Position numbers and translations under genes: made by a program
Part shown: piece by piece, positions 1,169-36,754 of the stretch
Layout: each line of letters begins with the position of its first letter
How positions within the stretch are numbered: position 1 is the stretch's first letter
NCBI GenBank assembly: GCA_947457565.1
Contig: CANGWH010000002.1
Span: forward strand, 12,175-76,174
Length of the DNA: 64,000 bases
Reading direction: 5' to 3'
Source: Flavobacteriales bacterium
GTDB taxonomy: Bacteria; Bacteroidota; Bacteroidia; NS11-12g; UBA955
The notes under the pieces: generated by a model
Database searches by the model: none
What the model saw: the letters and a program-made list of their open reading frames with translations, nothing else
What the model was told of the DNA's origin: nothing

Positions 1169-1791
1169 CTTCTGACATCATCTTTAAGTATTTCCCCGAT
1201 TTATCCGAGGTACAAAAAAATCAATTTAGACAATTGGGCGATTTGTATCTATTTCACAATGAACGAGTAAATTTAATTTCACGAAAAGACATACAAAATT
1301 TATACACCAACCATATCTTACATTCCCTAGCATTAGCCAAGTTCTGCGATTTCCTACCGGGTAACCATTATATGGATATTGGCACTGGAGGTGGTTTTCC
1401 AGGCATTCCCCTAGCTATTTTATTTCCTAAATCACAATTTACTTTGGTTGATTCGATAGGAAAAAAAATACAAGTAGTTAATGACGTAATCGCGAAAACC
1501 GAAATTCTCAATGCCACAGGCTTTCATCTGCGTGCTGAGCAAATGCCAATAAAAGTTGATACCATCGTGGCAAGGGCCGTTGCACCCTGTATTGAATTAT
1601 GGAATTGGAGTACCGGACTTTGGAAAAAGAAACCATCCTTCTATTTGCTCAAAGGCGGTGATTTAGCGGAAGAAATCAATGAAGTGTTAGCCATTTCACC
1701 CAAAACCAAAGTACAGATGCATGCCATTTCCGACATTTTAGGTGAATTTGAGTTTTTTGAAACAAAAAAGGTTTTGAAAATAATCGCATAA
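1162..1791 (+). CDS. rsmG: 16S rRNA (guanine527-N7)-methyltransferase RsmG/GidB
   Basis: It has an SAM-binding DIGTGGGFPGIPLAI motif and the overall RsmG pattern (KYFPDL...Q...F..L..LY..WN.RVNLIS). The start is an internal ATG at 1162 that overlaps the upstream stop as ATGGTAA. Confidence 0.75.
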   Translation: MVTSDIIFKYFPDLSEVQKNQFRQLGDLYLFHNERVNLISRKDIQNLYTNHILHSLALAKFCDFLPGNHYMDIGTGGGFPGIPLAILFPKSQFTLVDSIGKKIQVVNDVIAKTEILNATGFHLRAEQMPIKVDTIVARAVAPCIELWNWSTGLWKKKPSFYLLKGGDLAEEINEVLAISPKTKVQMHAISDILGEFEFFETKKVLKIIA

Positions 1792-4764: not shown

Positions 4765-5124
4765 ATGAATCCAGATATTTTATTTAATCGGTTGGAGCAA
4801 AGAACAGAGCGGGAATTATTCCGTAGAAGTTTCAAAGCTGCTGCGGATAGTCAGGATTCAATGTTTAAGAAGTTTGAGAACCGCAAGCGAGAACAACTAA
4901 AAGTAACCATAGCTAGAGAGGTGAAGTGGTTTTTAATAACCATTATCCTAGCCCCTGTTCTAGGTTTTGTTTTTTTCTATGCTTTTGCGAATTTAATGCA
5001 GGAGACGATGATAGAATTAGCTATTTTTTTTAATGGTGTTGAAACTCTATTTTTAATAATCTCTGGAATTACCTTTTTAGGAATTTATTTAGCTCGACTA
5101 ATTATTTGGGCATTGAAGCAGTAA
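4765..5124 (+). CDS. Small two-TM membrane protein, first gene of the injection-system operon (holin-like or anchor?)
   Basis: This 119-aa ORF has a charged N-terminal half followed by two predicted TM helices. It sits 3 nt upstream of the cap-like gene. No family was recognised. Confidence 0.4.
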   Translation: MNPDILFNRLEQRTERELFRRSFKAAADSQDSMFKKFENRKREQLKVTIAREVKWFLITIILAPVLGFVFFYAFANLMQETMIELAIFFNGVETLFLIISGITFLGIYLARLIIWALKQ

Positions 5125-5127: not shown

Positions 5128-5694
5128 ATGATTTACGAATCCCTTAGAGCCCTGGAATTAGAGATTAACTCTCACCTTAAATACGTTACAGGTTCTAATG
5201 AGGAATTATTGGTCCTTAGCAACATTGCCGATCAATCAGGTGCAAAAGCATTACAACAAGACAATGTAGTTTATTTTTCCTTACTAAGAATTGACGAAGA
5301 CAAGACGATAAATAAATCAGGCGGATATCCGAATAATTTCAAAAAGGGAGTGCCCACTTTATTGGTACTTTATGTAATGTTCGCTTCTTCTCATTCAGGA
5401 AACAGATATAAAGACGGAATATTTTTAATTGATAAAATCATTGGTTATTTCCATGAAAATTCGGTTTTAAAACAAACCGATATTGATGGATTACCCGCAG
5501 AAGTTGATTCCCTTGTCTTTGATTTGCAGAATATTGATTTTAGAGAGGTTTCCAATATATTTAGTGCTACCGGATCAAAATTAATGCCTCATGTAATTTA
5601 TAAAATTCGACTTTTACCTGTTTTCGGAAATGACAATAATAGATCATTACCAAGCATGAAGGAGCTAAATCGAAGGCTAAATGACAATGAATAA
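5128..5694 (+). CDS. DUF4255 (Pvc16/Afp16 N-terminal domain)-like protein, a putative tail terminator or cap
   Basis: This 188-aa protein has the DUF4255-like pattern (hydrophobic heptads, then VYFSLLRIDED...). Its position and tight spacing are consistent with an injection-system cap or terminator gene. Confidence 0.45.
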   Translation: MIYESLRALELEINSHLKYVTGSNEELLVLSNIADQSGAKALQQDNVVYFSLLRIDEDKTINKSGGYPNNFKKGVPTLLVLYVMFASSHSGNRYKDGIFLIDKIIGYFHENSVLKQTDIDGLPAEVDSLVFDLQNIDFREVSNIFSATGSKLMPHVIYKIRLLPVFGNDNNRSLPSMKELNRRLNDNE

Positions 5695-5702
5695 TTTCTT
5701 AA

Positions 5703-6539
5703 ATGAAAATTGTTGATTGGCTAAATATCAGTGCGAAACACGAACTTACTGGAGACGAGGAGTTATTCAGCTTTGGAATATTTCCAGATAATGAAACTCA
5801 ACGAAAACTTAAAAACCATAGACATTTATGGAATTTAGAGCGTGGCAAATTAACCGCCAAGTTTTTTACCCATGCCATAAATACGGAGTTACCAGAAATT
5901 GATTTTTTAGAACCAACGGTAACATTTAATTTTATTTTAGCTACAAAAGATTCGAATTTTCAATTAATTACTAAGAATTTAGATATTCCATTTTTTTATG
6001 AAAATCACCGACATGAAATTTCTATAGATGGCGCTAATTCAGCACCAGATGAAGTAGCTATTGTTTTTGCAAACGGGAATAAATACAAACCATCCCCTAT
6101 GCAACTACCCAATGGTTATCAATCTATTGGAAATCTAATATTAACTATAGAAAATCAGGTGGAATTTTTTAAAAATATAGTTAATCTCAAAAGACCACTT
6201 TCACTAAATTTCCAATTCAAATCAGCGGCTTATCCCATATTAATTGAGCTGATACCCGATATGAATACCGGCCCCTTACCAGAAATTGTGGAAGACGACA
6301 ATGGTTATGCACATTTTTCTTTGCAAAATGTGAATAACAACACCACTGTTTTCGCTCTATCCACCGAACCAATAAACCTTGTTTCTGCAAGCAAATTATC
6401 TATCCAAAGTTATTATATATCAACAGATAAGGAAAAGAAAAGGATAAAGCACAAAAACGTTAGATTTAGCATTGACAATCTCACTAACCACCCAAGTTAT
6501 CCACAACATCCTCTATTGTACAAGAAAGTAAAGTTGTAA
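5703..6539 (+). CDS. Hypothetical protein, injection-system-associated
   Basis: A 278-aa ORF with no recognisable motifs. Its codon usage is like its neighbours and it is 8 nt from the upstream gene. Confidence 0.5.
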   Translation: MKIVDWLNISAKHELTGDEELFSFGIFPDNETQRKLKNHRHLWNLERGKLTAKFFTHAINTELPEIDFLEPTVTFNFILATKDSNFQLITKNLDIPFFYENHRHEISIDGANSAPDEVAIVFANGNKYKPSPMQLPNGYQSIGNLILTIENQVEFFKNIVNLKRPLSLNFQFKSAAYPILIELIPDMNTGPLPEIVEDDNGYAHFSLQNVNNNTTVFALSTEPINLVSASKLSIQSYYISTDKEKKRIKHKNVRFSIDNLTNHPSYPQHPLLYKKVKL

Positions 6540-6578
6540 AGCCTTAGTTTTGTCCAAATCGTTAATTATTTAACAACT

Positions 6579-8444
6579 ATGGCAAATTACAGAACTCCAG
6601 GTGTGTACGTAGAAGAAATTTCTACCCTACCACCGTCGGTTGGTCAGGTACCAACTGCTGTTCCTGCGTTTGTTGGATATACTGCAAAAGCTCAAAAAGG
6701 CGGTAGCAGCATCCTAAACACAGGCGTTCACATCTCTTCTATGTTAGACTACATCGATTATTTCGGTGGTGGTTATGTTCCTGCTGAGATCCAAGTTTCT
6801 TTGGATGAAGGCAAGCAAGTTACCGGAGTTAAGTTTGACAAAAACTTCTACTTGTACGATGCAGTGCGTCTTTTTTTCGCTAACGGCGGAGGAGAATGCT
6901 ACATAGTATCCGTTGGTACTTATTCAGATGACATAAACTTCGAATCATTACTAGCTGGTTTGGAAGCTTGCAAGCGTGAAGACCAACCTACAATTTTGGC
7001 TATACCGGATTCTGTATTACTTGCTAAAGCTGACGAGTGTTTTTCTTTACAGCAAGCAATGTTAATGCAGTGTGCTGAAATGCAAAACCGTGTTGCTATT
7101 TTGGATGTTTACGAAGGCTATATTCACCGCAACGACAAGGATGTTGTGTTAAACTTCCGTAACGGTATTGGTGTTAATAATCTAAAATACGCTGCTTCTT
7201 ATTATCCTTGGATTTATTCAGCACTTCCACATAAATACAACCATGAAACCATAAAAATCAAGGTTGCCGATGAAGACAAAAGCTTAGAAGATTTAGCTTC
7301 TCACCCAATTTCTGTGAAGAATTTAAATGCTGCAATATCGGACATGGCCAAGATTCGTGATTTTTCAAATAAAGATTACAAATCTACAATCACTCCTTTA
7401 TTGGACAATTTGGATGGTTCAGCTGCCGATTTAAATGCGGGAGCCGGTGCTATTGCAACTTCTATGAAAGAGTTGTATGATTTCGCACTTGGTTTGTTCG
7501 ATAGCGCTCCTATCGCCAACGAAATGAGCGTTAAAGTAAATGCTAGTTCTAAATTCTCGGCTTTGTTGAAGAATTTTGCCAGCGTTGACGCTGCTATCGG
7601 TTCTGGGGCTTATAAAGGTGGTGACTTCTCTACGTTGGATTTGGGTGAACCCAATCCAAATGCTGCAATTGCTAACCAAGAGAACGCTGATATCAAGACT
7701 AAAATGTCTAAAGATGCTTTGTACAAGTTCGCCGATGAATTAAAAGGTATTTTAAACAGTGTTGCAGAAGATGCTGAAGCCATTAAAGAAAACCTAAGCA
7801 AAATCGCTTACGACCACAATCCTATCTTACAGAATATCGTTAATGAAATTTTGAAAGAACTGTCTAAAGCACCTACTGCTGGCCCAATTAGCGGTGTATA
7901 TGCAATGGTTGACAGTCAGCGTGGTGTATGGAAAGCTCCAGCAAACGTAAGTTTATCTTCTGTTGCTAGACCCTGTATCAAAATTGACGATCGTCAGCAA
8001 GAAGACTTAAACGTAGATGTACTTAGCGGTAAGAGTGTTAATGCTATCCGTACCTTCACAGGAAAAGGAACTTTAGTATGGGGCGCTAGAACATTGGCTG
8101 GAAACGATAACGAGTGGCGTTATATTTCTGTTCGTCGATTCTTCAACATGGTTGAAGAAAGCGTTAGAAACGCAACAGGATGGGCAGTATTTGAGCCAAA
8201 CGATGCATCCACTTGGATTCGCGTTAAAGCAATGATTGAAAACTACTTAACAAACCTTTGGAAAGCTGGAGCAATGGCTGGAGCATCTTCGGATCAGGCG
8301 TTCTTTGTAAACATTGGACTTGGTACAACTATGTCTGCTGTTGACATTTTGGAAGGTAGAATGAACATCGAAATAGGTATGGCCGTTGTAAGACCTGCGG
8401 AATTCATCGTATTGAAATTCTCACACAAATTACAAGAGTCATAA
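6579..8444 (+). CDS. Contractile tail sheath protein (Afp2-4/Pvc2-4-like)
   Basis: The N-terminus (YRTPGVYVEEISTLPPSV...VPAFVGYT) is the hallmark of phage and Afp sheath proteins. It has a conserved C-terminal sheath domain (VWGARTL...GMAVVRPAEFI) and is 621 aa long. Confidence 0.9.
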   Translation: MANYRTPGVYVEEISTLPPSVGQVPTAVPAFVGYTAKAQKGGSSILNTGVHISSMLDYIDYFGGGYVPAEIQVSLDEGKQVTGVKFDKNFYLYDAVRLFFANGGGECYIVSVGTYSDDINFESLLAGLEACKREDQPTILAIPDSVLLAKADECFSLQQAMLMQCAEMQNRVAILDVYEGYIHRNDKDVVLNFRNGIGVNNLKYAASYYPWIYSALPHKYNHETIKIKVADEDKSLEDLASHPISVKNLNAAISDMAKIRDFSNKDYKSTITPLLDNLDGSAADLNAGAGAIATSMKELYDFALGLFDSAPIANEMSVKVNASSKFSALLKNFASVDAAIGSGAYKGGDFSTLDLGEPNPNAAIANQENADIKTKMSKDALYKFADELKGILNSVAEDAEAIKENLSKIAYDHNPILQNIVNEILKELSKAPTAGPISGVYAMVDSQRGVWKAPANVSLSSVARPCIKIDDRQQEDLNVDVLSGKSVNAIRTFTGKGTLVWGARTLAGNDNEWRYISVRRFFNMVEESVRNATGWAVFEPNDASTWIRVKAMIENYLTNLWKAGAMAGASSDQAFFVNIGLGTTMSAVDILEGRMNIEIGMAVVRPAEFIVLKFSHKLQES

Positions 8445-8488
8445 AATTAATTAACCCAACGTTTAACAATAAAAAAAATTAAAACAAT

Positions 8489-8920
8489 ATGGCGAATCCA
8501 GATTATCCACTACCAAGGTTTCACTTCCGTGTAACTTTTGATAGCACAGTAATCAACTGCAGCGAGGTAACCGGTCTTAACACCAATTTGGATGTTATCG
8601 AATACCGCGATGGTGCAAGCGTTGAATTCAGTACCCAAAAAATGTCCGGCTTGAGAAAGTTTGGAGATATTGTAATTAAAAAAGGCGTTTTCCAAGATCA
8701 CCAAGAATATTGGGATTGGTACAATGCAGTTGAAATGAACAACCCAGTTCGTAAAACTGTAACCATCGAGTTATTGGATGAACAACATGCGCCTGTTATG
8801 ACTTGGGCATTGAAGAATGCTTGGCCTAACAAGGTTGAAAATCCCGATTTGAAATCGGATGCCAGTGAAGTAGCGGTTGAAACAATCACTATATCGCACG
8901 AAGGTTTATCCTTGGCATAA
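8489..8920 (+). CDS. Inner tube protein (Afp1/Pvc1-like)
   Basis: This 143-aa protein has the tube hallmark YPLPRFHFRVTFDS and the expected size. Confidence 0.85.
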   Translation: MANPDYPLPRFHFRVTFDSTVINCSEVTGLNTNLDVIEYRDGASVEFSTQKMSGLRKFGDIVIKKGVFQDHQEYWDWYNAVEMNNPVRKTVTIELLDEQHAPVMTWALKNAWPNKVENPDLKSDASEVAVETITISHEGLSLA

Positions 8921-8974
8921 TCTTTCCGAATAAGAACCCAACTATACGTTGATTCCCTATTTTTGTATTGAGCT

Positions 8975-9451
8975 ATGGCAAAAAAACAAAGCGTAGGTAA
9001 TCAGCCGTTAGTTGGGTTTCATTTTAGTGTTAACTTTCTTTTCAACACAAAAAACAAAACCACCGAAACAGGGTTTAAAGAAATAAAAGGAATTGAAAGA
9101 ACCATACTGTATAAACCTTCCGTAGAAGGAGCCACATCTTCGGATATGCTCGGTATAGATAAAGTTCAATACGGTACTCTCATTTTAAGTCGTGGTGTAG
9201 TTACCAATTCAAAAATTCACGAATGGTATGAAAAACATATTACCACTTTTAAAAAATACCCCATCCCAATCACGGTAAATGTGTTGGACAGCAACCATAA
9301 GCCTTTGTATTTTTATATCTTCTATGATGTCTATCCTGTAAAAATGGTCACCTCCGGATTTAATGCTATGAAGTCAGAAATTTTAATTGAAGAACTGCAC
9401 TTAGTCTACTCTAAATATACCCAAAGTACATCCGGCAGCTTTCAAAAATAA
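8975..9451 (+). CDS. Second inner tube protein (Afp5/Pvc5-like)
   Basis: This 158-aa protein has the VGFHFSVNF tube motif and is paralogous to the preceding gene. Confidence 0.8.
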   Translation: MAKKQSVGNQPLVGFHFSVNFLFNTKNKTTETGFKEIKGIERTILYKPSVEGATSSDMLGIDKVQYGTLILSRGVVTNSKIHEWYEKHITTFKKYPIPITVNVLDSNHKPLYFYIFYDVYPVKMVTSGFNAMKSEILIEELHLVYSKYTQSTSGSFQK

Positions 9452-9453
9452 CT

Positions 9454-9639
9454 ATGGTAGAGATTAAAAAGTTGATAATTAAAGCTTCTGTGAATGAGCA
9501 GAATGCCAACCAAGAAAACAATAGCGAAATTGAAGAAATTCAAAAGATTTATGAACATATCGAGGAAGTTAAACAAGAAATCCTCCATGATGTTGATGAA
9601 AGAATTGTGGAACTTATTGAAAAACGATTTAGAAAATAA
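9454..9639 (+). CDS. Small acidic coiled-coil protein, equivalent in position to Afp6/Pvc6
   Basis: A 61-aa E/K-rich ORF that starts 3 nt after the tube gene stop, with a same-strand operon context. Confidence 0.4.
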   Translation: MVEIKKLIIKASVNEQNANQENNSEIEEIQKIYEHIEEVKQEILHDVDERIVELIEKRFRK

Positions 9640-9647
9640 TAATATCC

Positions 9648-10394
9648 ATGGCTACAAGTTCAAACCAGATTAGCAAATTTGAAATAACAGCCTACGAAGA
9701 TGTTGATTGCACCAAAGCAGTTTCGCCTACATCTCAATCCAGCAAAGCCTTCGATTCAAGTAAATTAAAATATATATTTCCGTTTATTTCAAGTACGTTA
9801 AATCTTGAAAATACGCATACTTATAATTCCCAACAACCCATTGGTTTTTCTGGCGTTGATCCCAAATTTAAAAGTATAAAACCAAAGAATTTAAAACTAG
9901 ATCTGATTATTGATCCAGGTATAGAGCCTGATTATTCCTATTCTATGAATGAGGGAATGCCTATTAAAGAAGGGTTCATGACATTAACGGATAGGTTGGA
10001 ACTTTTCGAAAAACTGGTTGGATATAATTCTTCCACTCATAGACCCAATTATTTAGTACTATCTTGGGGTAGTAATTTTAGCATGAAAGCTACGCTTTCT
10101 TCCTATTCCATTGCCTATGACCGCTTTAACGCCAAAGGAGAACCTACAAAAGCAACCATTAAAGCTAATTTCCAGGAAGTAATTTCTTCAAAAAAAATGT
10201 TATCTGAACAAGATAGACAATCACCGGATGTTAGTCATTCCTTTGAAATAGAAGAAGGCGAGAATTTAATTCAACTCTGTGAACGTGTTTATGGAGACTC
10301 TAAATTCTATTTGCAAATAGCAAAAATTAATGGGTTAACATCCATTAGAAACTTACCCGTGGGAACTCGATTATATTTCCCTCCATTAAAATAA
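9648..10394 (+). CDS. Tube-initiator or baseplate hub protein with a C-terminal LysM domain (Afp7/Pvc7-like, T4 gp53-like)
   Basis: The C-terminal roughly 45 aa form a LysM fold (NLIQLCERVYGDSKFYLQIAKINGLTSIRNLPVGTRLYFP). Size and position match Afp7. Confidence 0.7.
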   Translation: MATSSNQISKFEITAYEDVDCTKAVSPTSQSSKAFDSSKLKYIFPFISSTLNLENTHTYNSQQPIGFSGVDPKFKSIKPKNLKLDLIIDPGIEPDYSYSMNEGMPIKEGFMTLTDRLELFEKLVGYNSSTHRPNYLVLSWGSNFSMKATLSSYSIAYDRFNAKGEPTKATIKANFQEVISSKKMLSEQDRQSPDVSHSFEIEEGENLIQLCERVYGDSKFYLQIAKINGLTSIRNLPVGTRLYFPPLK

Positions 10395-10400
10395 CTTACT

Positions 10401-12161
10401 ATGTCTTCCACCAAAGATCCAAGCACGGTTAGTTTCGAATTGTCCATTAACGGGGCAACATCCAAATTATCACCTCACATTCTTAAAATTCAAATCAATA
10501 AGAACATTGGTAAAATTTCAAGGGCAAAAGTAGTTATCCACGATGGCGATAGTTCTAAAGAAAAATTTGAGCTAATAGAGACAAATACCCCTAAAATCGG
10601 CGATACCGTAGAAATAAAAATAGGGGGCGATCCAACTTCTTTAAAATCCGTTTATAAAGGTGTAGTAAGCGGGTTAAGTGCCGAAGTTAGTAACTTTAAT
10701 CAACACGTTACTATTGATTGCGTGGATAAAGCTTTTCAAATGACGAAAGGTAGAAATACCTCTATTTTTCTAAAGAAAAAAGACGATGCAATTATAAAAG
10801 AAATTATAGGAAACTATGCAGGTATTACCGTTTCTGCAGATACAACAACAACCGAACATGAAAAATTAATTCAATACGGGGTGACGGATTGGGACTTTAT
10901 GTTAATGCGAGCAGAGGCAAATGGGCTTTTGGTAAGCAACTCAGATAACGAAATTGCTGTTAAGAAACCAAAATTAACGGAGGCAGCGAAACACACATAC
11001 AGCAATGGCACAAACATTCTAAATGTTCAAATTCAAGCCACCGGTGAGCCTGCGATTAGCTCAATGAGCATACAACATTGGGATTACGATTCCGGTGGAG
11101 TAAAGACAGGAAAGAGCGATGCAACAGATAAACCCAACTATCCAAGCTTGGTAACTGCAGATAGTGTTACAGCCTTTCAAAAGCCGAAAGAAGCAATAAA
11201 CGTTTATACCGCTGGCATCCACAAAGAAAACGCATTAAAGGGTATTGTAAACAACAAGGTTGTTCGATCCATGATTGCAACAGTTCGTGGTCAAGCAACA
11301 GTTTTTGGTGATTCTACCGTTAAACTCTGTGAAATAGTAGAACTTAAAGGCTTGGGGAAATTTAGTGGGAAGTTTTTTTGCAGTGGTATTGAACACAATA
11401 TGTCTGACGGAATTTTTTCTACTACAATACTTTTCGGGATAGACGATAAATCTTTATGGGAAAGAGACCCTAGTATTTTTCAAGAATCTGTAGGAAGTAC
11501 AATCTCTCCCGTTTACGGTTTACACTTGGGAACTGTAGTTAAATTAGATGGCGATCCAAACAGCCAGTTACGGATACAAATTAAACTTCCTATGTTCGGA
11601 TCTGATGCCTTAGTTTGGGCTCGACTCACCTTCCCTGACGCAGGAAAAAACCGAGGCATTTTCTTTGTTCCAGAAAAAGATGATGAAGTGGTGGTTTCTT
11701 TCTTAGATGGCGACCCAACCCAGCCCATAATTTTAGGAACATTGTATAATAAAAAAAGTACTGTACCAAAAACTTGGGATGCCAAAAACAATATTCGTAA
11801 AATCGTTTCAAAGAATAAAGTAGAAATTGAATTTGATGATGAAAAGAAAAATCTTACGCTAAAAACACCGGGTGGAAATTCAATTTTAATGGACGATGCA
11901 AAAGGTATTACCATTAAAGATAAAAATGGGAATAGCATCGAACTAGGCAGTTCAGGAATCACCATTAAATCTGCCAAAGACGCAACACTCAAAGCCTCTA
12001 AAAATGTAACCGTTCAAGGCGATGCAGGAGCAGTAACGATAAGTGGATTAGACGTAACCGCGGATGCTAAAAAAGCACTAAAAGTGGCGGGAAAAGCAAC
12101 TGCTGAAATAAGTGCCGCTGGAATACTGACAGTTAAAGGGGCGATGGTAAAAATTAATTGA
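10401..12161 (+). CDS. VgrG/gp27-gp5-like central spike protein (Afp8/Pvc8-like)
   Basis: This 586-aa protein has a gp5 OB-fold region (FGSDALVWARLTFPDAGKNRGIFFVPEKDDEVVVSFLDGDPTQPIILGTLYN) and C-terminal beta-helical repeats. Confidence 0.85.
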   Translation: MSSTKDPSTVSFELSINGATSKLSPHILKIQINKNIGKISRAKVVIHDGDSSKEKFELIETNTPKIGDTVEIKIGGDPTSLKSVYKGVVSGLSAEVSNFNQHVTIDCVDKAFQMTKGRNTSIFLKKKDDAIIKEIIGNYAGITVSADTTTTEHEKLIQYGVTDWDFMLMRAEANGLLVSNSDNEIAVKKPKLTEAAKHTYSNGTNILNVQIQATGEPAISSMSIQHWDYDSGGVKTGKSDATDKPNYPSLVTADSVTAFQKPKEAINVYTAGIHKENALKGIVNNKVVRSMIATVRGQATVFGDSTVKLCEIVELKGLGKFSGKFFCSGIEHNMSDGIFSTTILFGIDDKSLWERDPSIFQESVGSTISPVYGLHLGTVVKLDGDPNSQLRIQIKLPMFGSDALVWARLTFPDAGKNRGIFFVPEKDDEVVVSFLDGDPTQPIILGTLYNKKSTVPKTWDAKNNIRKIVSKNKVEIEFDDEKKNLTLKTPGGNSILMDDAKGITIKDKNGNSIELGSSGITIKSAKDATLKASKNVTVQGDAGAVTISGLDVTADAKKALKVAGKATAEISAAGILTVKGAMVKIN

Positions 12162-12174
12162 TTATTTTCGCGAT

Positions 12175-12474
12175 ATGCCTCCTGCAGCTAGAGTAACAGA
12201 CATGCACATGTGCCCAATGCAAACACCGGGTATAGTTCCTATTCCACATGTAGGAGGACCCATTGTTGGACCCGGCGCATCCAAAGTATTGATCGGAGGG
12301 CTTCCTGCAGCTTTAATGGGTGACAACTGCGTTTGTGTGGGTCCACCCGATAAAATAGTAAAAGGTTCTGCTACCGTATTAATTCAAGGGAAACCCGCTG
12401 CGAGGATGGGCGATACAACGGCTCACGGTGGTACGGTTATGAGCCTTTGCCCAACAGTTATGATTGGAGGATAA
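12175..12474 (+). CDS. PAAR-domain spike tip protein (Afp10-like)
   Basis: A 99-aa Gly/Pro-rich protein with the PAAR pattern (RVTDMHMCP...GGP...AARMGDTTAHGGTV). Confidence 0.85.
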   Translation: MPPAARVTDMHMCPMQTPGIVPIPHVGGPIVGPGASKVLIGGLPAALMGDNCVCVGPPDKIVKGSATVLIQGKPAARMGDTTAHGGTVMSLCPTVMIGG

Positions 12475-12475
12475 T

Positions 12476-12889
12476 ATGATTAGTGAATCAGAAAAAAATA
12501 ATTTCATTGGAACCGGAATACAATTTCCAATAAAAATCAATCCAAGTACTGGGAAAATTGAAACTGCACAAGGTAAAAATCTAATTGAACAAAGTATTAA
12601 ATTATTACTAAGCACTAAGCCCGGTGAACGATTATACCATAGTAATTATGGAATTGATTTAACCCCATTATTATTCGAAATTCCTAACGATAGCACATTA
12701 AAAGAAATTGAAGAGCGAATAAAAGATAGCATCGTTTTGTTCTTGCCAATGATCATTGTTGATTCTGTTGATTTTGAAATCAATGCATTGGAAGGGTTAA
12801 TTTACATTCAAATTGGATATATAGTAAAAGCCACAAACGCTCGAGCGAATTATGTTTATCCTTTCTACATCAAAGAAGCTAATCAATAA
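12476..12889 (+). CDS. gp25-like baseplate wedge protein (GPW/gp25 lysozyme-like fold, Afp9-like)
   Basis: It has the GPW_gp25 motif (G.GIQFPIKINPSTGKIETAQGKNLIEQSIKLLLSTKPGERL) and is about 137 aa from the internal ATG at 12476. Confidence 0.8.
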   Translation: MISESEKNNFIGTGIQFPIKINPSTGKIETAQGKNLIEQSIKLLLSTKPGERLYHSNYGIDLTPLLFEIPNDSTLKEIEERIKDSIVLFLPMIIVDSVDFEINALEGLIYIQIGYIVKATNARANYVYPFYIKEANQ

Positions 12890-12895
12890 TAGGCA

Positions 12896-15800
12896 TTGAA
12901 CCGCGATAGAAACTATAGTAGATACGAAATTCAAGACGTCAATGAATTAGAATTTAGCACCTTACTAAATAGTGCAACCCTATTTCAGAAAACAACGAAA
13001 GAGAATATTGTTACCGCAATTTTGGCTTTATCAAAACAAATCCAATTTTACAATTACAACGGTGAAACTGACGGTGATTTAAAACGATTTTTTGCTAGTA
13101 GTTTACCATTAATACTACTGCACACAACCGGCGAATCCATTTCTCAAAACATTAGAGATGCCAAAGATCTAGGTATTCAAATTGAACGATTACGATTAAA
13201 AGGAAATGATATAAATAGAAAATTACGAAGTGATTTGACTCAATTAATACGCGTTCAGTTAGAGAACTTAGAATTATTGAAAAATTCAGCATTTAGTGAA
13301 CAAAAATTCATTGAAGAACTTCTACCGTCTTTTCAATCACTTTCAAAATTATACCTTGATTTTTTTAATAATTGTATTAGTGATGGTTTAATTCCCTTAA
13401 ACAGAAAAGTTAAGCAACAATTTTACAATTTACTGCCTGCTCCAGTCTTTAACTCACAAATATCTTCGGAACATTGGTCGGTACAATTACTTCAATACAC
13501 TAATATTCTTGATGAAATAGATTTATTATGGAAATCTATACAATCAGAATCAAAAATTTTACTACAAAATATCATTAAGGATCAAAGTATTGATCCAATC
13601 TCTTCTCTAGCTTTTGTTTTAGGTGATTTATTAGAGGAAATTGGCAAAACAAATACAGATACCATTGATAAGTCTATCGCTGATTATTTTTTTAAAACCG
13701 TTGCTAAAATTGCTCCTTTTGAAACCGTATCAGACACCCTATACGCTCAGTTTGAAGCAATTCCCAACGATGAAATCAAAACAATCCCTGAAGGTTTAAA
13801 ATTCAAAGCTCTAATATCTCCTGAAATAGATGATTTCAATGTAGAATTAACCTGCGCTGAAAATACACCTATCAATAATCAGGAAATTATTAATCGTAAA
13901 ATTGTGAATTTCAGTTGGGACCAAATCAATACTGAAATAACAGATCAAGTAATACAAATAAGATCAACCCCACCCACTCGATACCAACTTGAAAAATTAA
14001 AGGCTCAATTTACAAATCTAAAATCTCCATTTTATTTTACTGTTTCTAGTCCATTATTATCCGTCGATGGAAACACCGTTAAATGGAAAATTTCCTTAGA
14101 ATTTTCAACATTGAACCTGTTAACAATACTTGAAAATTCATTTGACAAAAATCCTGATCTAAAACGTAGTTACGACAATCTTTCAATTGAGGATATTTTT
14201 ACAAGCTGGATAGACAACGGTTTTCTTCTGTCGTATCAATCCACAGAATCGATTGTAGAATTATCAACAGATAGGATATTTTTCACAGCCCAAAAAACAC
14301 TAGAGCAAAATTATGAATTTTGTTGGTCTTTGATGCTTGATAGTGATGACCCACTGCCCGTAGCGAATCCGGATGGTAACGTTCAGTTAACCTTTAATTT
14401 CATAAACGACTACTTATTCCTTTATCCATTATTTTCCAATTTAAAACCCAATACACTATCAATTGAAACAAGTGTACTTGATGTAACCAATTTAGAATTG
14501 TTTAATGACTTTGGGAAATTAGATACTACAACACCCTTTAATCCTTTTGGTACAAGGCCAGAAATTGGGTCAAAGTTTTACGTAGGACACCCATTGCTAT
14601 TTTCTAATGCACTAACTAATTTAAAAATAAATTGGCAATGGTATGGCCTACCGGACACTAACGGTGGATTTAAAGAACATTACAATAATTACGATTTAAT
14701 TGAATCAAACGAAGATTTCCTAGTTTCCATTTCAAGTTTACAAGGAGGCACTTGGTATCCAGAAACCGATAAACAAGTACTGCCTTTATTTACTACAACA
14801 ACAATAACCGAGAACACAGAAGATAAAGCAATTTCAAATATTCGCAGAATGAATGAAATCAATCTTCAACACCTCAACCTAGATAAAACTCATCGTAATT
14901 TCGAACAACTAAAAGAACCAAATAAAAGTAAATTTGGTTATTTAGCCTTTGAATTATTTTCACCTGCCGGTGCTTTCGGGCACAGTCGTTTCAATGACTT
15001 GGTTCAACGGAATATGAACAATAAGAAACCGGCAACAGTACAAGAGCCCTACACGCCATTAGTTACTGGAATTTCGGTTGAAGCAGTAATGCATGAAATT
15101 GTTGCTGAGGATTTAATCAACACAAGAATTTCCTGCTTTGGTGTTGAAGAATTAATAATGAATCAAGAAATCATCTCTTCTTATTCGTTAATGCCACGAA
15201 CGAATTACCAATCCGCTATGTATCTGGAATTTTCCAATTTTGACGATGGTAAGGCAAGTTTATACTTTCAATTACCAGAGAGATTTAATGGCATTCAAAG
15301 TAAATCCAAGAAGCAATGGTATCAATGGGAGAATAAAAAATGGAATGAAGTTGAAACAGCAAACATAGTAAGGGATGAGACACTTGCATTTGAATGTTCA
15401 GGCCAAATTTTAATCAATGAACTAATTGAAAACGAACCCTATATTAATAACTGGCTTAAAGTTACATCCTTTTCAGACAATGTTTTAACCAGGGTTAATC
15501 AGGTTTTAACGCAAACAGTAAAATTCAATATCAACGGGAGTGAAAGCCCAGCTCATGACTTAGAAATTACCGGAATTGAGATCCCTGATGAATTTTCTCT
15601 CGCTATTGGTGAAGTGAAACCAATTCATCAACAATCAATAAAAGCATTGCCCAATTTAGGCTATAAAAACGGCCCCTATTCGTTCCAATTTAAAACTCAA
15701 AATCGAATTGCCGATTTACAAGATTTGAAGCAATTTTTATTGTTAAAATTTCCAAAAATTCAGGAAGTACTTATCATTTCACATAAAGACAACCAAGATG

Positions 15801-16498
15801 CTAACGTACCTGGTTTAGTTCGTGCCATTTTAATTCCTCGATCAAAAAGTGATAGTTTATCGATAGCAAACTGGCCAAAATTCTCCACGTTAGAATTAAA
15901 ACAAATACAACATTTTTTAAACGACCATTCGGTTGTTGGCTGTCAGTATTCCGTTGAAAACCCTATTTATGAAGAAATTGTATTAAAAGGCAATATTGTT
16001 ATCAAAGCAGGGGTGGATAAAAACGAAGCTTCGTTAACCATTAATCAAGCTGTGTTAAAAGGATTTTTAGACTTTACAGGGATACAAAAAAAAGGATTCA
16101 GCTTTGGAAAAAGTATTTATACATCGAAGATTCTGAGTATTATTCGAAATTTACCATTTATTCAATCGGTAACAAACTTTGCCTGTTATACACGATTCGA
16201 TAATGAATTGTTGCTACCGGAGAATTTTAATAGTTTAAATTATCGGGTTGAACCGTCTAATATTAATCACATTTTAATTCCATCGTCGCAGCATTTTCTT
16301 GAAATTAAAGAATCAAACAAGACCCTTAGCGATGGCATTGGGGTATCGAATATGGCTCTTGAAACAGATTTCGTTATTGACAAATCAAGATACCTGCAGA
16401 AAAATTTGGGAATCGGAAGTCGAAAATTAGGAATAAATTTGCAAATTAATGGGGATTTTGACACTGAAAATCATGCAATCACGGAATTATTTCTTTAA
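12896..16498 (+). CDS. Large baseplate J (T4 gp6)-like protein (Afp11/Pvc11-like), 1200 aa, TTG start
   Basis: The size and its position immediately after gp25 match the invariant gp25-gp6 synteny of contractile systems. There is no in-frame ATG for more than 60 codons, so the start is TTG at 12896, 3 nt after tandem TAA-TAG stops. Confidence 0.5.
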   Translation: MNRDRNYSRYEIQDVNELEFSTLLNSATLFQKTTKENIVTAILALSKQIQFYNYNGETDGDLKRFFASSLPLILLHTTGESISQNIRDAKDLGIQIERLRLKGNDINRKLRSDLTQLIRVQLENLELLKNSAFSEQKFIEELLPSFQSLSKLYLDFFNNCISDGLIPLNRKVKQQFYNLLPAPVFNSQISSEHWSVQLLQYTNILDEIDLLWKSIQSESKILLQNIIKDQSIDPISSLAFVLGDLLEEIGKTNTDTIDKSIADYFFKTVAKIAPFETVSDTLYAQFEAIPNDEIKTIPEGLKFKALISPEIDDFNVELTCAENTPINNQEIINRKIVNFSWDQINTEITDQVIQIRSTPPTRYQLEKLKAQFTNLKSPFYFTVSSPLLSVDGNTVKWKISLEFSTLNLLTILENSFDKNPDLKRSYDNLSIEDIFTSWIDNGFLLSYQSTESIVELSTDRIFFTAQKTLEQNYEFCWSLMLDSDDPLPVANPDGNVQLTFNFINDYLFLYPLFSNLKPNTLSIETSVLDVTNLELFNDFGKLDTTTPFNPFGTRPEIGSKFYVGHPLLFSNALTNLKINWQWYGLPDTNGGFKEHYNNYDLIESNEDFLVSISSLQGGTWYPETDKQVLPLFTTTTITENTEDKAISNIRRMNEINLQHLNLDKTHRNFEQLKEPNKSKFGYLAFELFSPAGAFGHSRFNDLVQRNMNNKKPATVQEPYTPLVTGISVEAVMHEIVAEDLINTRISCFGVEELIMNQEIISSYSLMPRTNYQSAMYLEFSNFDDGKASLYFQLPERFNGIQSKSKKQWYQWENKKWNEVETANIVRDETLAFECSGQILINELIENEPYINNWLKVTSFSDNVLTRVNQVLTQTVKFNINGSESPAHDLEITGIEIPDEFSLAIGEVKPIHQQSIKALPNLGYKNGPYSFQFKTQNRIADLQDLKQFLLLKFPKIQEVLIISHKDNQDANVPGLVRAILIPRSKSDSLSIANWPKFSTLELKQIQHFLNDHSVVGCQYSVENPIYEEIVLKGNIVIKAGVDKNEASLTINQAVLKGFLDFTGIQKKGFSFGKSIYTSKILSIIRNLPFIQSVTNFACYTRFDNELLLPENFNSLNYRVEPSNINHILIPSSQHFLEIKESNKTLSDGIGVSNMALETDFVIDKSRYLQKNLGIGSRKLGINLQINGDFDTENHAITELFL

Positions 16499-16512
16499 TA
16501 TTACACGATAAA

Positions 16513-17217
16513 ATGGGGTCACGTAAACGTTCAGAATTAAAAAACTATTTTATTAAGGGAAGAATCCCAAAAGAAGAGGATTTTCAAGATTTAATTGATT
16601 CTACCGTCAACTTAATGGACGATAGAATTGACGTGGATGAAGATAATGGTTTGTTGCTTGAACAGAAAGAGAATAACGCCGTTGTAACCATTAGAAAAAG
16701 TATAGATAATGAAGACTCTTTTTGGAGAATAGAATTAGACGAAACGGATAATGATAGTTATCTACAGTTTAAGCATAACCAAAACGATATACCCATTGTA
16801 AGCTTATCGAAAAACGGCAATGTGGGTATCGGTATTGAAAAACCAATTCACAAACTTGACGTAGACGGGTTGATTGGATATCATGGTAGACTTGGTTATT
16901 ATCGATTTGGTGAAGTAAGTGCTGATGGCCAATGGCATAATATAATTGAAGGCATCTCTTCCCCTATGGCTGTTGAAGTTATAGCAAATTGTGGAGAAAA
17001 GGGAGCACATGCAATTACGCATGCTATTGCTGTTTGCACCTTTGGAAATAGTAAGGGTGGAATTCAAGCTACCCAAAATTATTTTGGCAGATCTAGAAAT
17101 AAAATTGAAGTTCGATGGTTTGGCGATTACTTCAATTATTCGTTGCAAATTAAAACCGGACGAGCATTTTCAAGGGAAACTAAAATAAAATATCATGTAG
17201 CTCTATTATGGGAATAA
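16513..17217 (+). CDS. Hypothetical protein (injection-system lineage-specific; fibre, adaptor or cargo candidate)
   Basis: A 234-aa ORF in tight operon context with no recognisable motifs. Confidence 0.45.
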   Translation: MGSRKRSELKNYFIKGRIPKEEDFQDLIDSTVNLMDDRIDVDEDNGLLLEQKENNAVVTIRKSIDNEDSFWRIELDETDNDSYLQFKHNQNDIPIVSLSKNGNVGIGIEKPIHKLDVDGLIGYHGRLGYYRFGEVSADGQWHNIIEGISSPMAVEVIANCGEKGAHAITHAIAVCTFGNSKGGIQATQNYFGRSRNKIEVRWFGDYFNYSLQIKTGRAFSRETKIKYHVALLWE

Positions 17218-17218
17218 T

Positions 17219-17419
17219 ATGGCATTATCGAAAAATTCAATTATAGAGCTAAATTTAAGTGCACAAGAAATCAATATTATCTTGGATGGTTTGGCTGCAA
17301 TGCCCTACAAAAATGTTTACCATTTAATAGAAAAAATCCACGCTCAAGTTAATACGCAGTCTAATCCTACCCATATAGGTAACCAAGATCCCAATTTTAC
17401 AAAAAAGTCCTCTCAGTAA
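17219..17419 (+). CDS. Hypothetical small protein
   Basis: A 66-aa ORF that fills the gap between operon genes exactly (1 nt after the previous stop). Confidence 0.35.
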   Translation: MALSKNSIIELNLSAQEINIILDGLAAMPYKNVYHLIEKIHAQVNTQSNPTHIGNQDPNFTKKSSQ

Positions 17420-17432
17420 AAACAAAACTGCA

Positions 17433-19970
17433 ATGAGTGACATTAACCAAAAGTATTCCATTGATGCGGAATTTGAAATTCCCGAGGCTTTCGATATATA
17501 TGCTTTAAGAGATAAAGGAATTAAACTAATTCAACAATACAGTGGTACAAGTTGGACTGATCACAACCTTCATGACCCTGGAATTACCATACTCGAGCAA
17601 ATCTGTTTTGCCATTGCCGATGTAAGTTACCAGACAACGCAAGCTATTGAATCTGCTATTGAATCGAATCAATTTGCGTTTAGTCCCTATTTCAAAATCG
17701 ACTCTACAACACCTTCATTTTATACTTTCGAAGATCTTGCTAAAATCATACAACAAGATGAACGAGTATACAAAGTATTCGTAATTCCCTCCTTAACCTA
17801 CCCCACTGTATCTGGAGTATACGATCTTGTAATTTTTTGTGAACAAGGTGCCAATAGAGAAGATGTAAAAAAATGGGTAAATGAGATTGCCAATCAATGG
17901 AGACCGTTATGTACTAAAATTGAAAGTATTCATTTACCGCCAATAAAACCAATTATTATTGATCTTGAAGTTGAGGTAAATTCAACAGAAAACATACAAG
18001 ATATTCTACAGTCCTATATAGGAGTTATTAAAGATTTTCTTAAAGGCAAAAACAATTCATTTACATTTTTTAACGAACAGATAACAGATCCTATATCTTT
18101 TTCAAAAAAAATAGGAATTCAATTACAAGCCGCTGACTTAGTTGCCGCAATCAATCAAATAAAATTCACTAAAGATATTATAAATATTAAATTAAAAGAT
18201 CCGGAACAAGAGTTTATTTGGACTTTAATTTTCGATATTCCTTATGAATTAACAATTGATCCAAAAAGTAAAATTACCTTTAAATATTCAGGGACTACAA
18301 TTCATGTATGTACAGACAAACAGTTATTCCAATTTGATAAAAAGAACCAATTTAAAAGAAAACAATCCAATTTCAGAGGTAATGACAATTTCAACCGATA
18401 CACCCAATTTTCGTCATTACAAAAAGGATTACCTTCTATTTATAACTTAGAACGCGATTTCAGAGACCCTATAAAAACAGAAGATGCCGGAGCGTTACAG
18501 CTGAAAGGTTTGCTATCGGTATTTGATCTTGTGATTTCTAATTTTATTGGAAAACTAGAAGTAATTTATTCGTTTTTAAATAAAAAACATATAAAATTTG
18601 CTGATTTAGCAGAGGATATGTTACTTAAAATACCCGGTATTGAATGGGTTTGGATTGATTTTATAAATAATTTTGAAGAAGTAAAAGTTACAAAAAGTAA
18701 ACCTCAACGGTATACCTATTGGAAAAACTACCTAAATACTTACAAAGATAAACTCCACGAAATGGTAAGTATGAGTTCACGAGCTGAACTCGACAATATT
18801 GAACAACTAATTTCATCCTATTTGTACCTTTTACAGTTAATGGGATTTAATTTAGAATTAATTGTAAAGCCACTTAAACAGTTAACAGCCCTAGATAGAG
18901 CATTCTATTTAGAACGATTATTGGAATATTGGATAGATAATAAAAATCATAGGATTCATACGCAAAACAACTTCTATCAAACTTCAATTCAGCCAAGCAA
19001 TACCGGTTATAGGGGTTTGATTTCAGCAATATTAAATTTAAACTTTGATACATTCAGCTTTTCTCAAAACATATCAAAAACATGGTCTAAACTAAGTAAA
19101 CCTGAGAATCATGCGTTCAAAATTGAACAAATAAAGTCAATTGCAGATTTATTTATTTATGGTAGAAATGAAAAGAATTATGTTTTGTCAGAAAAATCAG
19201 CTACAATAATTAAATCCCCAGACAATCCTATAGGTTTCATAAACAAATTTATTACCCAAGAGCAAATTGTTGATTTGTGCAGGAAACTTAAAGATATCCA
19301 TGATAAATCAGAAGGTTTTTTGTTATTTGAACATGCATTATTGGCCCCAGAATTAGAAGAATCTGTCTTTGGATTAAATTGTCAAATTGAGCATTCTTTA
19401 TATTTTTACATCGAACCCAATTATACTGTTAGAGATATTTACCGAAAAATATCAGAAATAGAGTCTTCTATAACCAATAACTCCTTTAAAATCATCACAA
19501 AAAATGAAGGTAAAAGGCAATATTGTAATTTTTTAATGATAGATGACACTGAATTTAAAATTGATAAATTTTATGGGGCAGAAAAGGACGGTGTTGAAGA
19601 CGCACAAAGAATAGGTAGAATTATCAGAGATAAAGGAATCAAATTTCATATTATCGATTACCTATATTACAGGTTCGCCAATCAAATTGATCCCTATAGT
19701 TTTACAATTTCACTTTGTTTTCCAAACTGGATTGACAAATTCGCTACAGCATCGCAAATAAATTCGATTTTACAAATTATTGATAAGACTGCCCCTCCAC
19801 ATCTTGTAGTTCAATGCAAATGGTTAAACCCTAAAGAGTTTGAGTTTTTAATGGAGAATTTCAATAAACTTACTAAAGGGAAGAGTATTGACACAGAGAA
19901 AAGTGCGGCAAGAATAAATTTATGTAATTTGCTAATGAAAGATGAAGTCCAACCATCTATTAATTCATGA
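17433..19970 (+). CDS. Large hypothetical protein, possibly an Afp12/Pvc12-like (gp7-like) baseplate component
   Basis: An 845-aa protein placed where Afp12 lies in canonical loci. It has no NTPase motifs and overlaps the downstream giant gene by 29 nt. Confidence 0.35.
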   Translation: MSDINQKYSIDAEFEIPEAFDIYALRDKGIKLIQQYSGTSWTDHNLHDPGITILEQICFAIADVSYQTTQAIESAIESNQFAFSPYFKIDSTTPSFYTFEDLAKIIQQDERVYKVFVIPSLTYPTVSGVYDLVIFCEQGANREDVKKWVNEIANQWRPLCTKIESIHLPPIKPIIIDLEVEVNSTENIQDILQSYIGVIKDFLKGKNNSFTFFNEQITDPISFSKKIGIQLQAADLVAAINQIKFTKDIINIKLKDPEQEFIWTLIFDIPYELTIDPKSKITFKYSGTTIHVCTDKQLFQFDKKNQFKRKQSNFRGNDNFNRYTQFSSLQKGLPSIYNLERDFRDPIKTEDAGALQLKGLLSVFDLVISNFIGKLEVIYSFLNKKHIKFADLAEDMLLKIPGIEWVWIDFINNFEEVKVTKSKPQRYTYWKNYLNTYKDKLHEMVSMSSRAELDNIEQLISSYLYLLQLMGFNLELIVKPLKQLTALDRAFYLERLLEYWIDNKNHRIHTQNNFYQTSIQPSNTGYRGLISAILNLNFDTFSFSQNISKTWSKLSKPENHAFKIEQIKSIADLFIYGRNEKNYVLSEKSATIIKSPDNPIGFINKFITQEQIVDLCRKLKDIHDKSEGFLLFEHALLAPELEESVFGLNCQIEHSLYFYIEPNYTVRDIYRKISEIESSITNNSFKIITKNEGKRQYCNFLMIDDTEFKIDKFYGAEKDGVEDAQRIGRIIRDKGIKFHIIDYLYYRFANQIDPYSFTISLCFPNWIDKFATASQINSILQIIDKTAPPHLVVQCKWLNPKEFEFLMENFNKLTKGKSIDTEKSAARINLCNLLMKDEVQPSINS

Positions 19971-28400: not shown

Positions 28401-28439
28401 GAAAGTACTAGGTTTTTTTATTAGATTCGCAATGTTTTA

Positions 28440-30356: not shown

Positions 30357-30963
30357 TAAAGGCATTTCAAATTGTATATTGTTAGGTCTTTTGAGTTCGA
30401 TACTCATTTCGGCTTGTGCCAGGCGATCATTTTCTCAAGATTTTATTGCTCGTTTTGGCGTTGATTCATCCATGATGACTCAAATGTATTATTTTCCTAA
30501 TAGACCGTTTAATCTTCAATTTGGTATTAGGGATATTAAATTTAAAGACAATAATGGTAGTTATATAATCACCCGATATAGGAATGTAGATGAATATTTA
30601 TTTACACCAAAAACAAGGGGGATTCTTAGGTACTATTCTAAAGATACCGTAAAAATACAATTCTCAGACAGTTCAACAGGTGTGCTAAGATTTGTTAGAG
30701 ACACAGAAAACGACAGATATTTTTTAAGTGCTGACACCATTCTCGGTGAAAGATTTATCATTAATTATTTAGGATATAATTGTATAAGCAGTACACGTAT
30801 GCCTAGAATCAAATTAACCGTCCAAGGGGTTGAATTAACAAAAGTTAAACGACATAGAAAAATTCAATCTGGGGTAAGTCGTGGCAATAGTGAACTGCAA
30901 ATCCAAAGTGAACCGAAAAAACCGAAAAAAACTAGAATAAAGCCAGCTCCGGTTATAGAGTAA
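30340..30963 (+). CDS. Hypothetical lipoprotein
   Basis: A 207-aa protein with a LISAC lipobox-like signal and a basic C-terminal tail. Confidence 0.5.
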   Translation: MKKPLNKGISNCILLGLLSSILISACARRSFSQDFIARFGVDSSMMTQMYYFPNRPFNLQFGIRDIKFKDNNGSYIITRYRNVDEYLFTPKTRGILRYYSKDTVKIQFSDSSTGVLRFVRDTENDRYFLSADTILGERFIINYLGYNCISSTRMPRIKLTVQGVELTKVKRHRKIQSGVSRGNSELQIQSEPKKPKKTRIKPAPVIE

Positions 30964-30971
30964 AATTCACA

Positions 30972-34041: not shown

Positions 34042-34044
34042 TGG

Positions 34045-36750: not shown

Positions 36751-36754
36751 CCCA

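Follow-up and report, generated by a model that had tools for sequence, protein, structure and literature searches.

A contractile injection system locus of a Flavobacteriales bacterium, very probably a complete representative of subtype Ib

Can a contractile injection system (CIS) do without its assembly ATPase and its fibre, or do these parts only seem to be missing when a locus is compared with the wrong relatives? The question is raised by a stretch of 64,000 nucleotides from a Flavobacteriales bacterium (assembly GCA_947457565.1, contig CANGWH010000002.1, positions 12,175 to 76,174 of the forward strand), called the window here at its full length, in which closely packed genes on the plus strand (4765-27129) form a CIS operon. 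Measured against the antifeeding prophage (Afp) and the Photorhabdus virulence cassettes (PVC), its gene order had been described as non-canonical and some of its parts as missing (hereafter the original prediction). The locus is very probably a complete and typical CIS of lineage I, subtype Ib, the group of AlgoCIS, the Anabaena thylakoid CIS, the metamorphosis-associated contractile structures (MAC) and the type VI secretion systems of subtype iv (T6SS-iv). That ATPase and fibre seem lost is a product of the Afp/PVC reference and of the window boundary, and the claim of missing parts is not borne out: the gene assigned to the ATPase lies just outside the window, and a putative fibre gene is found among the open reading frames (ORFs) that had been left unassigned.

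A metagenome scaffold of 119 kb (ENA ERZ28613074, scaffold_142) contains the window, and outside the operon the window is ordinary Bacteroidota chromosome with alaS, the gene for phosphoenolpyruvate carboxykinase (PEPCK), gldB, dnaG, NAD synthase and others. Proteins encoded on a metagenome-assembled genome contig labelled as uncultured Flavobacteriaceae are 49-90% identical to those of the window, with values of 87-90% for the TPR, GH18-like and 207-aa proteins encoded downstream of the operon. Protein families were assigned through Pfam, names through NCBIfam and solved relatives through PDB sequence searches, with PADLOC as the defence library. Related loci, identified here by L numbers, were gathered through homologs of the sheath and of a Cis13-like protein, and through the C-terminus of the tape measure in genomes and the GH18-like protein in metagenomes. 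With the C-terminus of the tape measure, a word-indexed search for homologs gave two short matches only, which then served as the alignment for scanning genomes. Sheath homologs numbered more than 7700 at E<=1e-30, the best 120 being at least 53% identical to the sheath of the window.

The assembly ATPase and the gene order

None of the ORFs of the operon has an AAA or P-loop match in Pfam. A Walker A pattern search returned a single match in the operon, GGVKTGKS at 11094, and, outside the operon, the STAND protein discussed below and PEPCK; the match at 11094 seems due to chance and was rejected as an NTPase, since it lies within the spike gene VgrG, an ORF that itself has no AAA or P-loop match in Pfam. 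When four CIS-linked AAA proteins of relatives were searched against the 64 kb with tblastn, none matched at E<0.05, and no pseudogene remnant was found. The earlier statement that no protein with Walker A and B motifs is encoded in 4765-27129 agrees with these Pfam results, with the correction that an ATPase lies just outside the window.

An Afp15-like ATPase immediately beyond the window, the outcome that the original prediction had itself named as its refutation, is what the scaffold shows. In the 7993 bases to the left of window base 1 (locus L014), a minus-strand gene starts 127 nt from that base (about -1466 to -126), divergent from the operon and about 4.9 kb from its start, and encodes an AAA protein of 446 aa (AAA446). 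Over its full length, this protein is 54-59% identical to the AAA proteins flanking the operons of L007, L011 and L013, and 39% identical (E 1e-121) to the one encoded directly after the tape measure in L019 (AAA460), with which its N-terminal 240 aa align; its identity to the AAA protein directly after the tape measure in L028 is 43%. Pfam recognizes an AAA domain at residues 245-370 (3.3e-26), both Walker motifs are intact (A, GPSGTGKT; B, ILFFDE), and the best PDB matches are Cdc48/p97 (6e-40), as for an AAA protein of the CDC48 clade. By sequence, AAA446 is an ATPase of the Afp15/Cis15 type and the ortholog of the AAA proteins encoded in or abutting the operons of relatives, an assignment made through those relatives and not by comparison with the Afp15 and Pvc15 sequences themselves.

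The surroundings of the ATPase gene also have their counterparts. In the three closest relatives (L007, L011 and L013, sheath identity 73-78%), a divergent AAA gene coding for about 440 aa abuts the 119-aa gene with which the operon begins, and is followed by variable genes with no Pfam matches. Here, AAA446 is followed further to the left by genes for proteins of 633 and 154 aa (L014 16170-18547), which match the 619-aa and 156-aa proteins of L007 (38% and 41% identity), while the equivalents in L011 and L013 differ. Variation of the ATPase-adjacent genes in these two loci is as expected for cargo or effector genes and their partners. The 633-aa protein has a disordered N-terminus rich in Gly, Ala and Ser and, close to the other end, a hydrophobic stretch with many glycines, and might, as a guess from these features, be a loaded, membrane-active cargo.

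Between this module and the operon stand genes for a family 2 glycosyltransferase (GT2), rsmG/gidB and alaS, an arrangement that is found in this lineage only and recurs in a second sample, on a contig of ERZ21844627. Because these three housekeeping genes came between module and operon, the ATPase fell outside the window. In L019 and L028 the Cis15 module follows the tape measure, in L007, L011 and L013 it stands upstream of the operon in divergent orientation, and in the present locus it is upstream as well, beyond the three housekeeping genes. By orthology and position, the ATPase of this clade has left the operon's 3' end for a divergent site upstream, where it heads a small module of its own.

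Two further AAA arrangements were observed in these regions. At 1040-6831 of L013, two paralogous Cis15-like AAA genes (43% identical) lie around a gene for a 1048-aa protein with no family matches. To the left of the window, beside the module of the ATPase and the putative cargo, L014 19145-21787 encodes a protein of 880 aa in which two AAA domains and an AAA_lid_6 domain are recognized and which has IetA-like PADLOC matches; L007 and L011 lack it at the corresponding site, and it was rejected as a CIS part, being probably unrelated to the system.

From its 5' end, the operon encodes a membrane protein, Cis16A, the probable Cis16B, sheath, tube, Cis5, the probable Cis6, Cis7, VgrG, PAAR, gp25 and Cis11, and continues with the putative Cis13 short fibre, a 66-aa ORF, Cis12 and the tape measure (Table 1). 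This order is shared by seven independent loci (L007, L009, L011, L013, L019, L028 and L029), of which L019 lacks PAAR and whose sheaths range from 78% down to 53% identity to that of the window, and the locus tags of the Anabaena CIS give a matching relative order. Subtypes Ia and Ib are known to share components and to differ in organisation (Chen et al. 2019). Because it recurs in all seven related loci, the order with the cap first and PAAR before gp25 is the norm of subtype Ib, unusual only in comparison with the Afp/PVC systems of subtype Ia, and the term non-canonical does not fit it. Two details reported with it were partly right. A Pvc16_N/DUF4255 cap gene does stand at the 5' end, but the gene for the 119-aa membrane protein, and not the cap gene, leads the operon. 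PAAR does lie between VgrG and gp25, but its reported overlap with gp25 arises only if gp25 is begun at TTG 12464: on all carrier contigs, gp25 is called from ATG 12476, one nt past the PAAR stop codon, which gives a protein of 137 aa (137-138 aa in relatives) and no overlap. As a separate observation, L029 (GCA_029940435.1), at 13629-15092, has a DJ-1/PfpI gene after Cis12 in place of the tape measure, which suggests a split or truncated locus.

Parts of the operon, the short fibre and the tape measure

Table 1. Features of the operon, of the genes between it and the ATPase module, and of the block downstream (window positions)
Feature	Coordinates	Strand	Basis or remarks
GT2 glycosyltransferase	26-1168	+	between ATPase module and operon
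rsmG/gidB	1162-1791	+	between ATPase module and operon
alaS	2008-4635	-	between ATPase module and operon
119-aa membrane protein, first in operon	4765-5124	+	charged N-terminus, 2-3 hydrophobic helices
Cis16A cap (tail terminator), 188 aa	5128-5694	+	Pfam Pvc16_N/DUF4255 1.1e-16; Alg16A has 197 aa
Cis16B cap adaptor (probable), 278 aa	5703-6539	+	ortholog profile, position, size
Sheath (Cis2), 621 aa	6579-8444	+	Pfam Phage_sheath_1C; PDB matches
Inner tube (Cis1), 143 aa	8489-8920	+	Pfam Phage_T4_gp19 1.1e-40; close relatives 87-93% identical
Second tube-family protein (Cis5-like), 158 aa	8975-9451	+	Pfam Phage_T4_gp19 4.7e-20
Cis6 spike plug (probable), 61 aa	9454-9639	+	Pfam DUF5908 1.9e-05, 25.8 bits, below the 27.7-bit cut-off
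Cis7 tube initiator, 248 aa	9648-10394	+	Pfam CIS_tube 1.5e-24
VgrG-like spike (Cis8), 586 aa	10401-12161	+	Pfam Phage_base_V 6.7e-21, Phage_GPD
PAAR spike tip (Cis10), 99 aa	12175-12474	+	Pfam PAAR_motif 1.6e-26
gp25-like sheath initiator (Cis9), 137 aa	12476-12889	+	Pfam GPW_gp25 8.1e-15; ATG 12476
Cis11 (gp6/Afp11-like baseplate wedge), 1200 aa	12896-16498	+	PDB matches
Cis13-like short fibre or baseplate-peripheral trimer (putative), 234 aa	16513-17217	+	position, profile, fold
Conserved 66-aa ORF between Cis13-like gene and Cis12	17219-17419	+	gene calls
Cis12 (gp6/gp7-like, Afp12-like baseplate wedge), 845 aa	17433-19970	+	PDB matches
Giant tape measure (Cis14), 2395 aa	19942-27129	+	Pfam CIS_TMP 1.8e-39, residues 2116-2392
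TPR lipoprotein	27153-28400	-	Pfam TPR; signal peptide with lipobox-like Cys
Inactive GH18-like protein	28440-30356	+	Pfam Glyco_hydro_18 3.3e-24; signal peptide, 2-3 C-terminal transmembrane helices
207-aa lipoprotein	30340-30963	+	lipobox; syntenic, 40-89% identity
993-aa polytopic inner-membrane protein, about 10 predicted helices, large soluble C-terminal part	31060-34041	-	
TonB-dependent-receptor-family outer-membrane protein, 901 aa	34045-36750	-	Pfam Plug; NCBIfam TonB-dependent families
nSTAND1 NTPase with WD40 propeller, 1003 aa	36755-39766	-	Pfam nSTAND1 1.9e-95, WD40-type propellers
487-aa protein upstream of STAND gene, last in block	39754-41217	-	weak DUF4062 match only

The sheath supports the lineage assignment. 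Its PDB matches are led by AlgoCIS (7.7e-129), SalCIS (1.6e-118) and Anabaena All3325 (1.8e-118), against 1e-37 to 1e-63 for Pvc and Afp sheaths, so that by match scores in a similarity search, and not by a tree, it groups with the sheaths of subtype Ib. Membership in subtype Ia was rejected, as the order differs, a single sheath gene is present and an Afp13-like fibre is absent.

Most of the ORFs that had been called unassigned can be given a place among known CIS parts through PDB, profile or Pfam matches (Cis11, Cis12, the Cis13-like protein, and the probable Cis16B and Cis6), and NCBIfam has no name for any of them. Cis11 matches All3317 (2.4e-25), the SalCIS baseplate J protein (6.5e-24) and Alg11 (1.7e-21), and its 1200 aa compare with the 1231 aa of All3317 and the 1050 aa of Alg11, to both of which it is homologous. 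The spike-cage extension of Cis11 is typical of Ib systems, and by its length the present protein is big enough to include one. Cis12 matches Alg12 (4.3e-20), All3315 (2.7e-16) and SalCis12 (6.2e-14), with Afp12 and Pvc12 as weak matches. For the cap adaptor candidate, the tape measure and the 119-aa membrane protein, PDB searches with single sequences were uninformative, and for the first of these an ortholog profile was needed. Built from five orthologs, the profile gave three matches in all, among them the AlgoCIS cap adaptor (7adz_1A, E 0.001) and, ranked third at E 0.85, the Anabaena CIS protein All3326, with no further CIS protein among the three; the candidate also agrees with Alg16B (284 aa) in position and size, and is probably Cis16B. 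Its AlphaFold2 model from the single sequence (mean pLDDT 36.5) was unusable for a fold search. The 61-aa ORF is a probable Cis6: DUF5908 is called at the same position, that of the Cis6 plug, in L009, L019 and L028, and Alg6 is the small plug protein of AlgoCIS.

Two small proteins have a less definite place. The 119-aa protein at the head of the operon is also the first operon gene product in L007, L011 and L013, where it is 59-69% identical, and in L009, where identity falls to 30%; it has no match in Pfam, NCBIfam or the PDB, and is a candidate membrane anchor or holin-like release factor. The 66-aa ORF, which is conserved in L009, L011, L013, L028 and L029 (49-61% identity) and has no Pfam match, is possibly a fibre assembly factor.

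The operon has no gene for a long Afp13-type or collagen-like fibre. The 234-aa protein encoded between Cis11 and Cis12 nonetheless speaks against the claim that no fibre-like protein is present. It occupies this place in all relatives, as all3316, which encodes the tail-fibre-like Cis13 of the Anabaena CIS, does between all3317 and all3315. A profile of four sequences matches the Bdellovibrio Bd2133 fibre (9.6e-10), with the similarity in a shaft motif that is repeated, GNVGIG...P..KLDV.G; other fibre proteins of Bdellovibrio are matched too, as is, weakly, the N-terminus of All3316 (E 0.0045 over 39 residues). An AlphaFold2 model made with 30 homologs (mean pLDDT 81) has a confident C-terminal beta domain, and Foldseek places the Bd2133 fibre and T4 gp9 first among the matches of the monomer model, which also include tailspikes and fibres. 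Altogether, the protein would begin with a motif for attachment, continue with a repeat of the fibre-shaft type and end in a beta domain that is lectin-like, and profile and model point to a Cis13-like short fibre, predicted to be a trimer. The hedged alternative of the original prediction, that ATPase and fibre are encoded elsewhere or that the unassigned ORFs serve instead, was right in both halves, with the ATPase outside the window and the putative fibre among these ORFs.

We consider it the less probable case that this protein is a structural or anchoring trimer of the baseplate, like Anabaena Cis13, Amoebophilus Aasi_0556 and T4 gp9, the last of which is a connector and trigger, and not a fibre that binds a target. 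Its N-terminus resembles that of All3316, the anchor of the Anabaena CIS to the thylakoid membrane, gp9 baseplate proteins are among its top fold matches, and Aasi_0556 has been proposed as the T6SS-iv anchor; however, the C-terminal transmembrane helix of All3316 is absent here, the C-terminal domain is like sugar-binding lectins, and the shaft motif matches adhesive Bdellovibrio fibres.

The tape measure is conserved in its last ~280 residues, the CIS_TMP domain, and the versions of relatives range from 1901 to 2491 aa. Its N-terminal ~2050 aa (19942-26100) are encoded at 29% GC, against 34-41% elsewhere in the window, and diverge faster than their neighbours: the tape measure is 36% identical to that of L022, whereas the flanking genes are at 69-91%. 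Phage tape measures correspond to about 0.15 nm of length per residue. By this phage rule, which is uncalibrated for the CIS family, a tape measure of 2395 aa would give a length of about 300-360 nm. The Aureispira T6SS-iv reaches 420 nm, a length set by its tape measure, and AlgoCIS has 23 sheath layers; by analogy, the predicted length would be in the range of the former and far above the latter.

The envelope/STAND block downstream

Seven genes follow the tape measure (27153-41217), the products of which are all envelope or membrane-associated proteins. The block stands after the tape measure in all four genome loci recovered with the tape measure C-terminus and in all four annotated metagenome loci recovered with the GH18-like query, in which the tape measure gene is directly upstream of it. 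All eight metagenome loci found with this query fall in the block region, the four that were left without annotation being 91% identical to the query; with the genome loci, the two anchors led to this region in twelve loci. The whole block was confirmed in five recovered loci, including all three distant metagenome loci, and in distant clades its proteins are 24-53% identical, much as the CIS proteins are.

The TPR lipoprotein is found after the tape measure in L015-L018, L022, L024, L025 and L027 at 40-89% identity. In the GH18-like protein, the catalytic glutamate of the DxDxE motif is lost in all four aligned members, which have DFPD or DLYG instead, and a glycan-binding pseudoenzyme is the likely reading of this change. 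The C-terminal region of the 993-aa protein is 28-34% identical in distant loci, in which the TonB-dependent-receptor-family protein is syntenic as well (36-39%). In L024, L025 and L027, the STAND protein is syntenic and 39-42% identical over its full length, and so is the 487-aa protein at 28-36%. The STAND protein has one predicted transmembrane segment (499-517) between NTPase and propeller. PADLOC has no match for this protein, the 487-aa partner or the 993-aa protein.

Because the block follows the tape measure in the recovered loci, the STAND protein is probably linked to the CIS, and its dismissal as an unrelated NTPase is doubtful. We found no publication that describes such an envelope/STAND block. 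From synteny, it would fit the trans-envelope complex of the Aureispira T6SS-iv, with parts associated with the outer membrane, the periplasm and the inner membrane. That its genes encode both a conduit across the envelope and the trigger for firing, in a very long machine anchored to the cell like T6SS-iv, is a speculative proposal, which we would sooner doubt than accept.

Known systems and mode of action

Among known systems, AlgoCIS of Algoriphagus machipongonensis (PDB 7adz, 7aeb) provides the best sheath match and clear matches for Cis11 and Cis12, and would share the cap in two parts (a short Cis16A and the probable Cis16B adaptor), the probable Cis6 plug, a small protein in both, and a Cis11 long enough for a cage. 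It differs in its Ig-like fibre Alg19, of which no homolog was seen here, where a Cis13-like short fibre would stand instead; the present locus also has a far larger tape measure and the envelope/STAND block downstream, and there is no DUF4157 cargo gene in the window. The thylakoid CIS of Anabaena PCC 7120 (all3313-all3327; PDB 7b5h) has strong sheath, Cis11 and Cis12 matches, the same succession of Cis11, a small Cis13 and Cis12 (all3317, all3316, all3315) and, in All3316, N-terminal similarity to the Cis13-like protein. The latter is longer here (234 vs 154 aa) and ends in a beta-sandwich, not in a transmembrane helix, and the host, a member of the Bacteroidota, has no thylakoids. The T6SS-iv of Aureispira sp., which acts in ixotrophy, and that of Amoebophilus asiaticus belong to the Ib lineage and to the Bacteroidota, and are likened to the present locus by description and not by sequence. 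In Aureispira, Cis11 forms a cage, and a trans-envelope complex is present, the proteins of which are unnamed in the preprint; anchoring, antennae and contact-dependent killing are features of that system, and for an anchored mode of the window locus the giant tape measure and the conserved envelope block are indirect hints. The Amoebophilus system differs in its split locus and in having no trans-envelope complex. With the Afp/PVC systems of subtype Ia, the tube, sheath, Cis7, VgrG, gp25, PAAR, Cis11, Cis12, tape measure, AAA ATPase and cap are shared. The cap comes first here and not last, PAAR precedes gp25, the ATPase is divergent upstream and not after the tape measure, one sheath gene replaces three, the adenovirus-like Afp13 fibre is absent, and the cap is probably divided between Cis16A and Cis16B.

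Family knowledge suggests how such a machine would work. The baseplate (Cis6, 7, 8, 9, 10, 11 and 12) would nucleate the polymerisation of tube and sheath along the tape measure, Cis16A and Cis16B would end the structure, and the AAA ATPase would aid assembly and cargo loading; a passage in PMC11495950 describes Pvc15 as the loader of payloads in extracellular CIS (eCIS). Contraction of the sheath would then push the tube, tipped with VgrG and PAAR, into the target.

A reduced, non-canonical lineage that has given up an Afp15-like ATPase and a fibre, or uses novel replacements, seems highly improbable. It would account for the lack of a P-loop protein in 4765-27129, of a CIS-linked AAA homolog in the 64 kb and of a long Afp13-type or collagen-like fibre gene, but an orthologous AAA gene with conserved partner genes lies on the scaffold 127 nt beyond the window, the protein at 16513-17217 is fibre-like, and the other ORFs called unassigned map to known CIS parts. 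As to the mode of action of a complete Ib system, one anchored in the cell envelope and dependent on contact, like the Aureispira T6SS-iv, is favoured, with about an even chance of being correct, because the envelope/STAND block follows the tape measure and because of the length of the machine. A released, AlgoCIS-like particle is a somewhat less probable but real competitor: it would be assembled in the cytoplasm, freed by lysis and bound to its target through the lectin-like tip of Cis13, and the block would be functionally unrelated. The AlgoCIS chains are the best solved homologs, a lectin-like fibre tip suits target binding, an ATPase with a putative cargo module is typical of eCIS, and the 119-aa membrane protein could be holin-like. 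However, no endolysin or lysis cassette was seen in the locus, the block is still attached to the tape measure in clades where identity is down to 24-53%, and the predicted 300-360 nm far exceed the 23 sheath layers of AlgoCIS.

Several points nevertheless count against a complete and anchored Ib machine. Three housekeeping genes part the ATPase from the operon, and its link to the operon rests on orthology and position. The link of the Cis13-like protein to All3316 is weak (E 0.0045, 39 residues), the global TM-scores of its monomer model to the matches are low (0.24-0.32), and the assignments of Cis16B and Cis6 combine weak scores (E 0.001 and a Pfam score below cut-off) with position. The length estimate depends on a phage rule that is uncalibrated for this family, and AlgoCIS, the closest solved relative, is a released and not an anchored particle. 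The TonB-dependent receptor of the block looks ordinary, and common ancestry inside a single bacterial order, not function, could account for the synteny of the block.

For the anchored, T6SS-iv-like machine that is favoured here, the seven-gene block beside giant tape measures offers candidates for anchoring and triggering. If its proposed role is true, it would supply candidates for the unnamed trans-envelope complex and the antenna of the Aureispira T6SS-iv, and would tie a STAND NTPase to the control of a contractile injection system. For the family at large, the locus and its relatives provide a parts list and a synteny table for an abundant group of Bacteroidota CIS, in which the Cis15 module is mobile, so that screens demanding an ATPase within the operon misclassify such loci.

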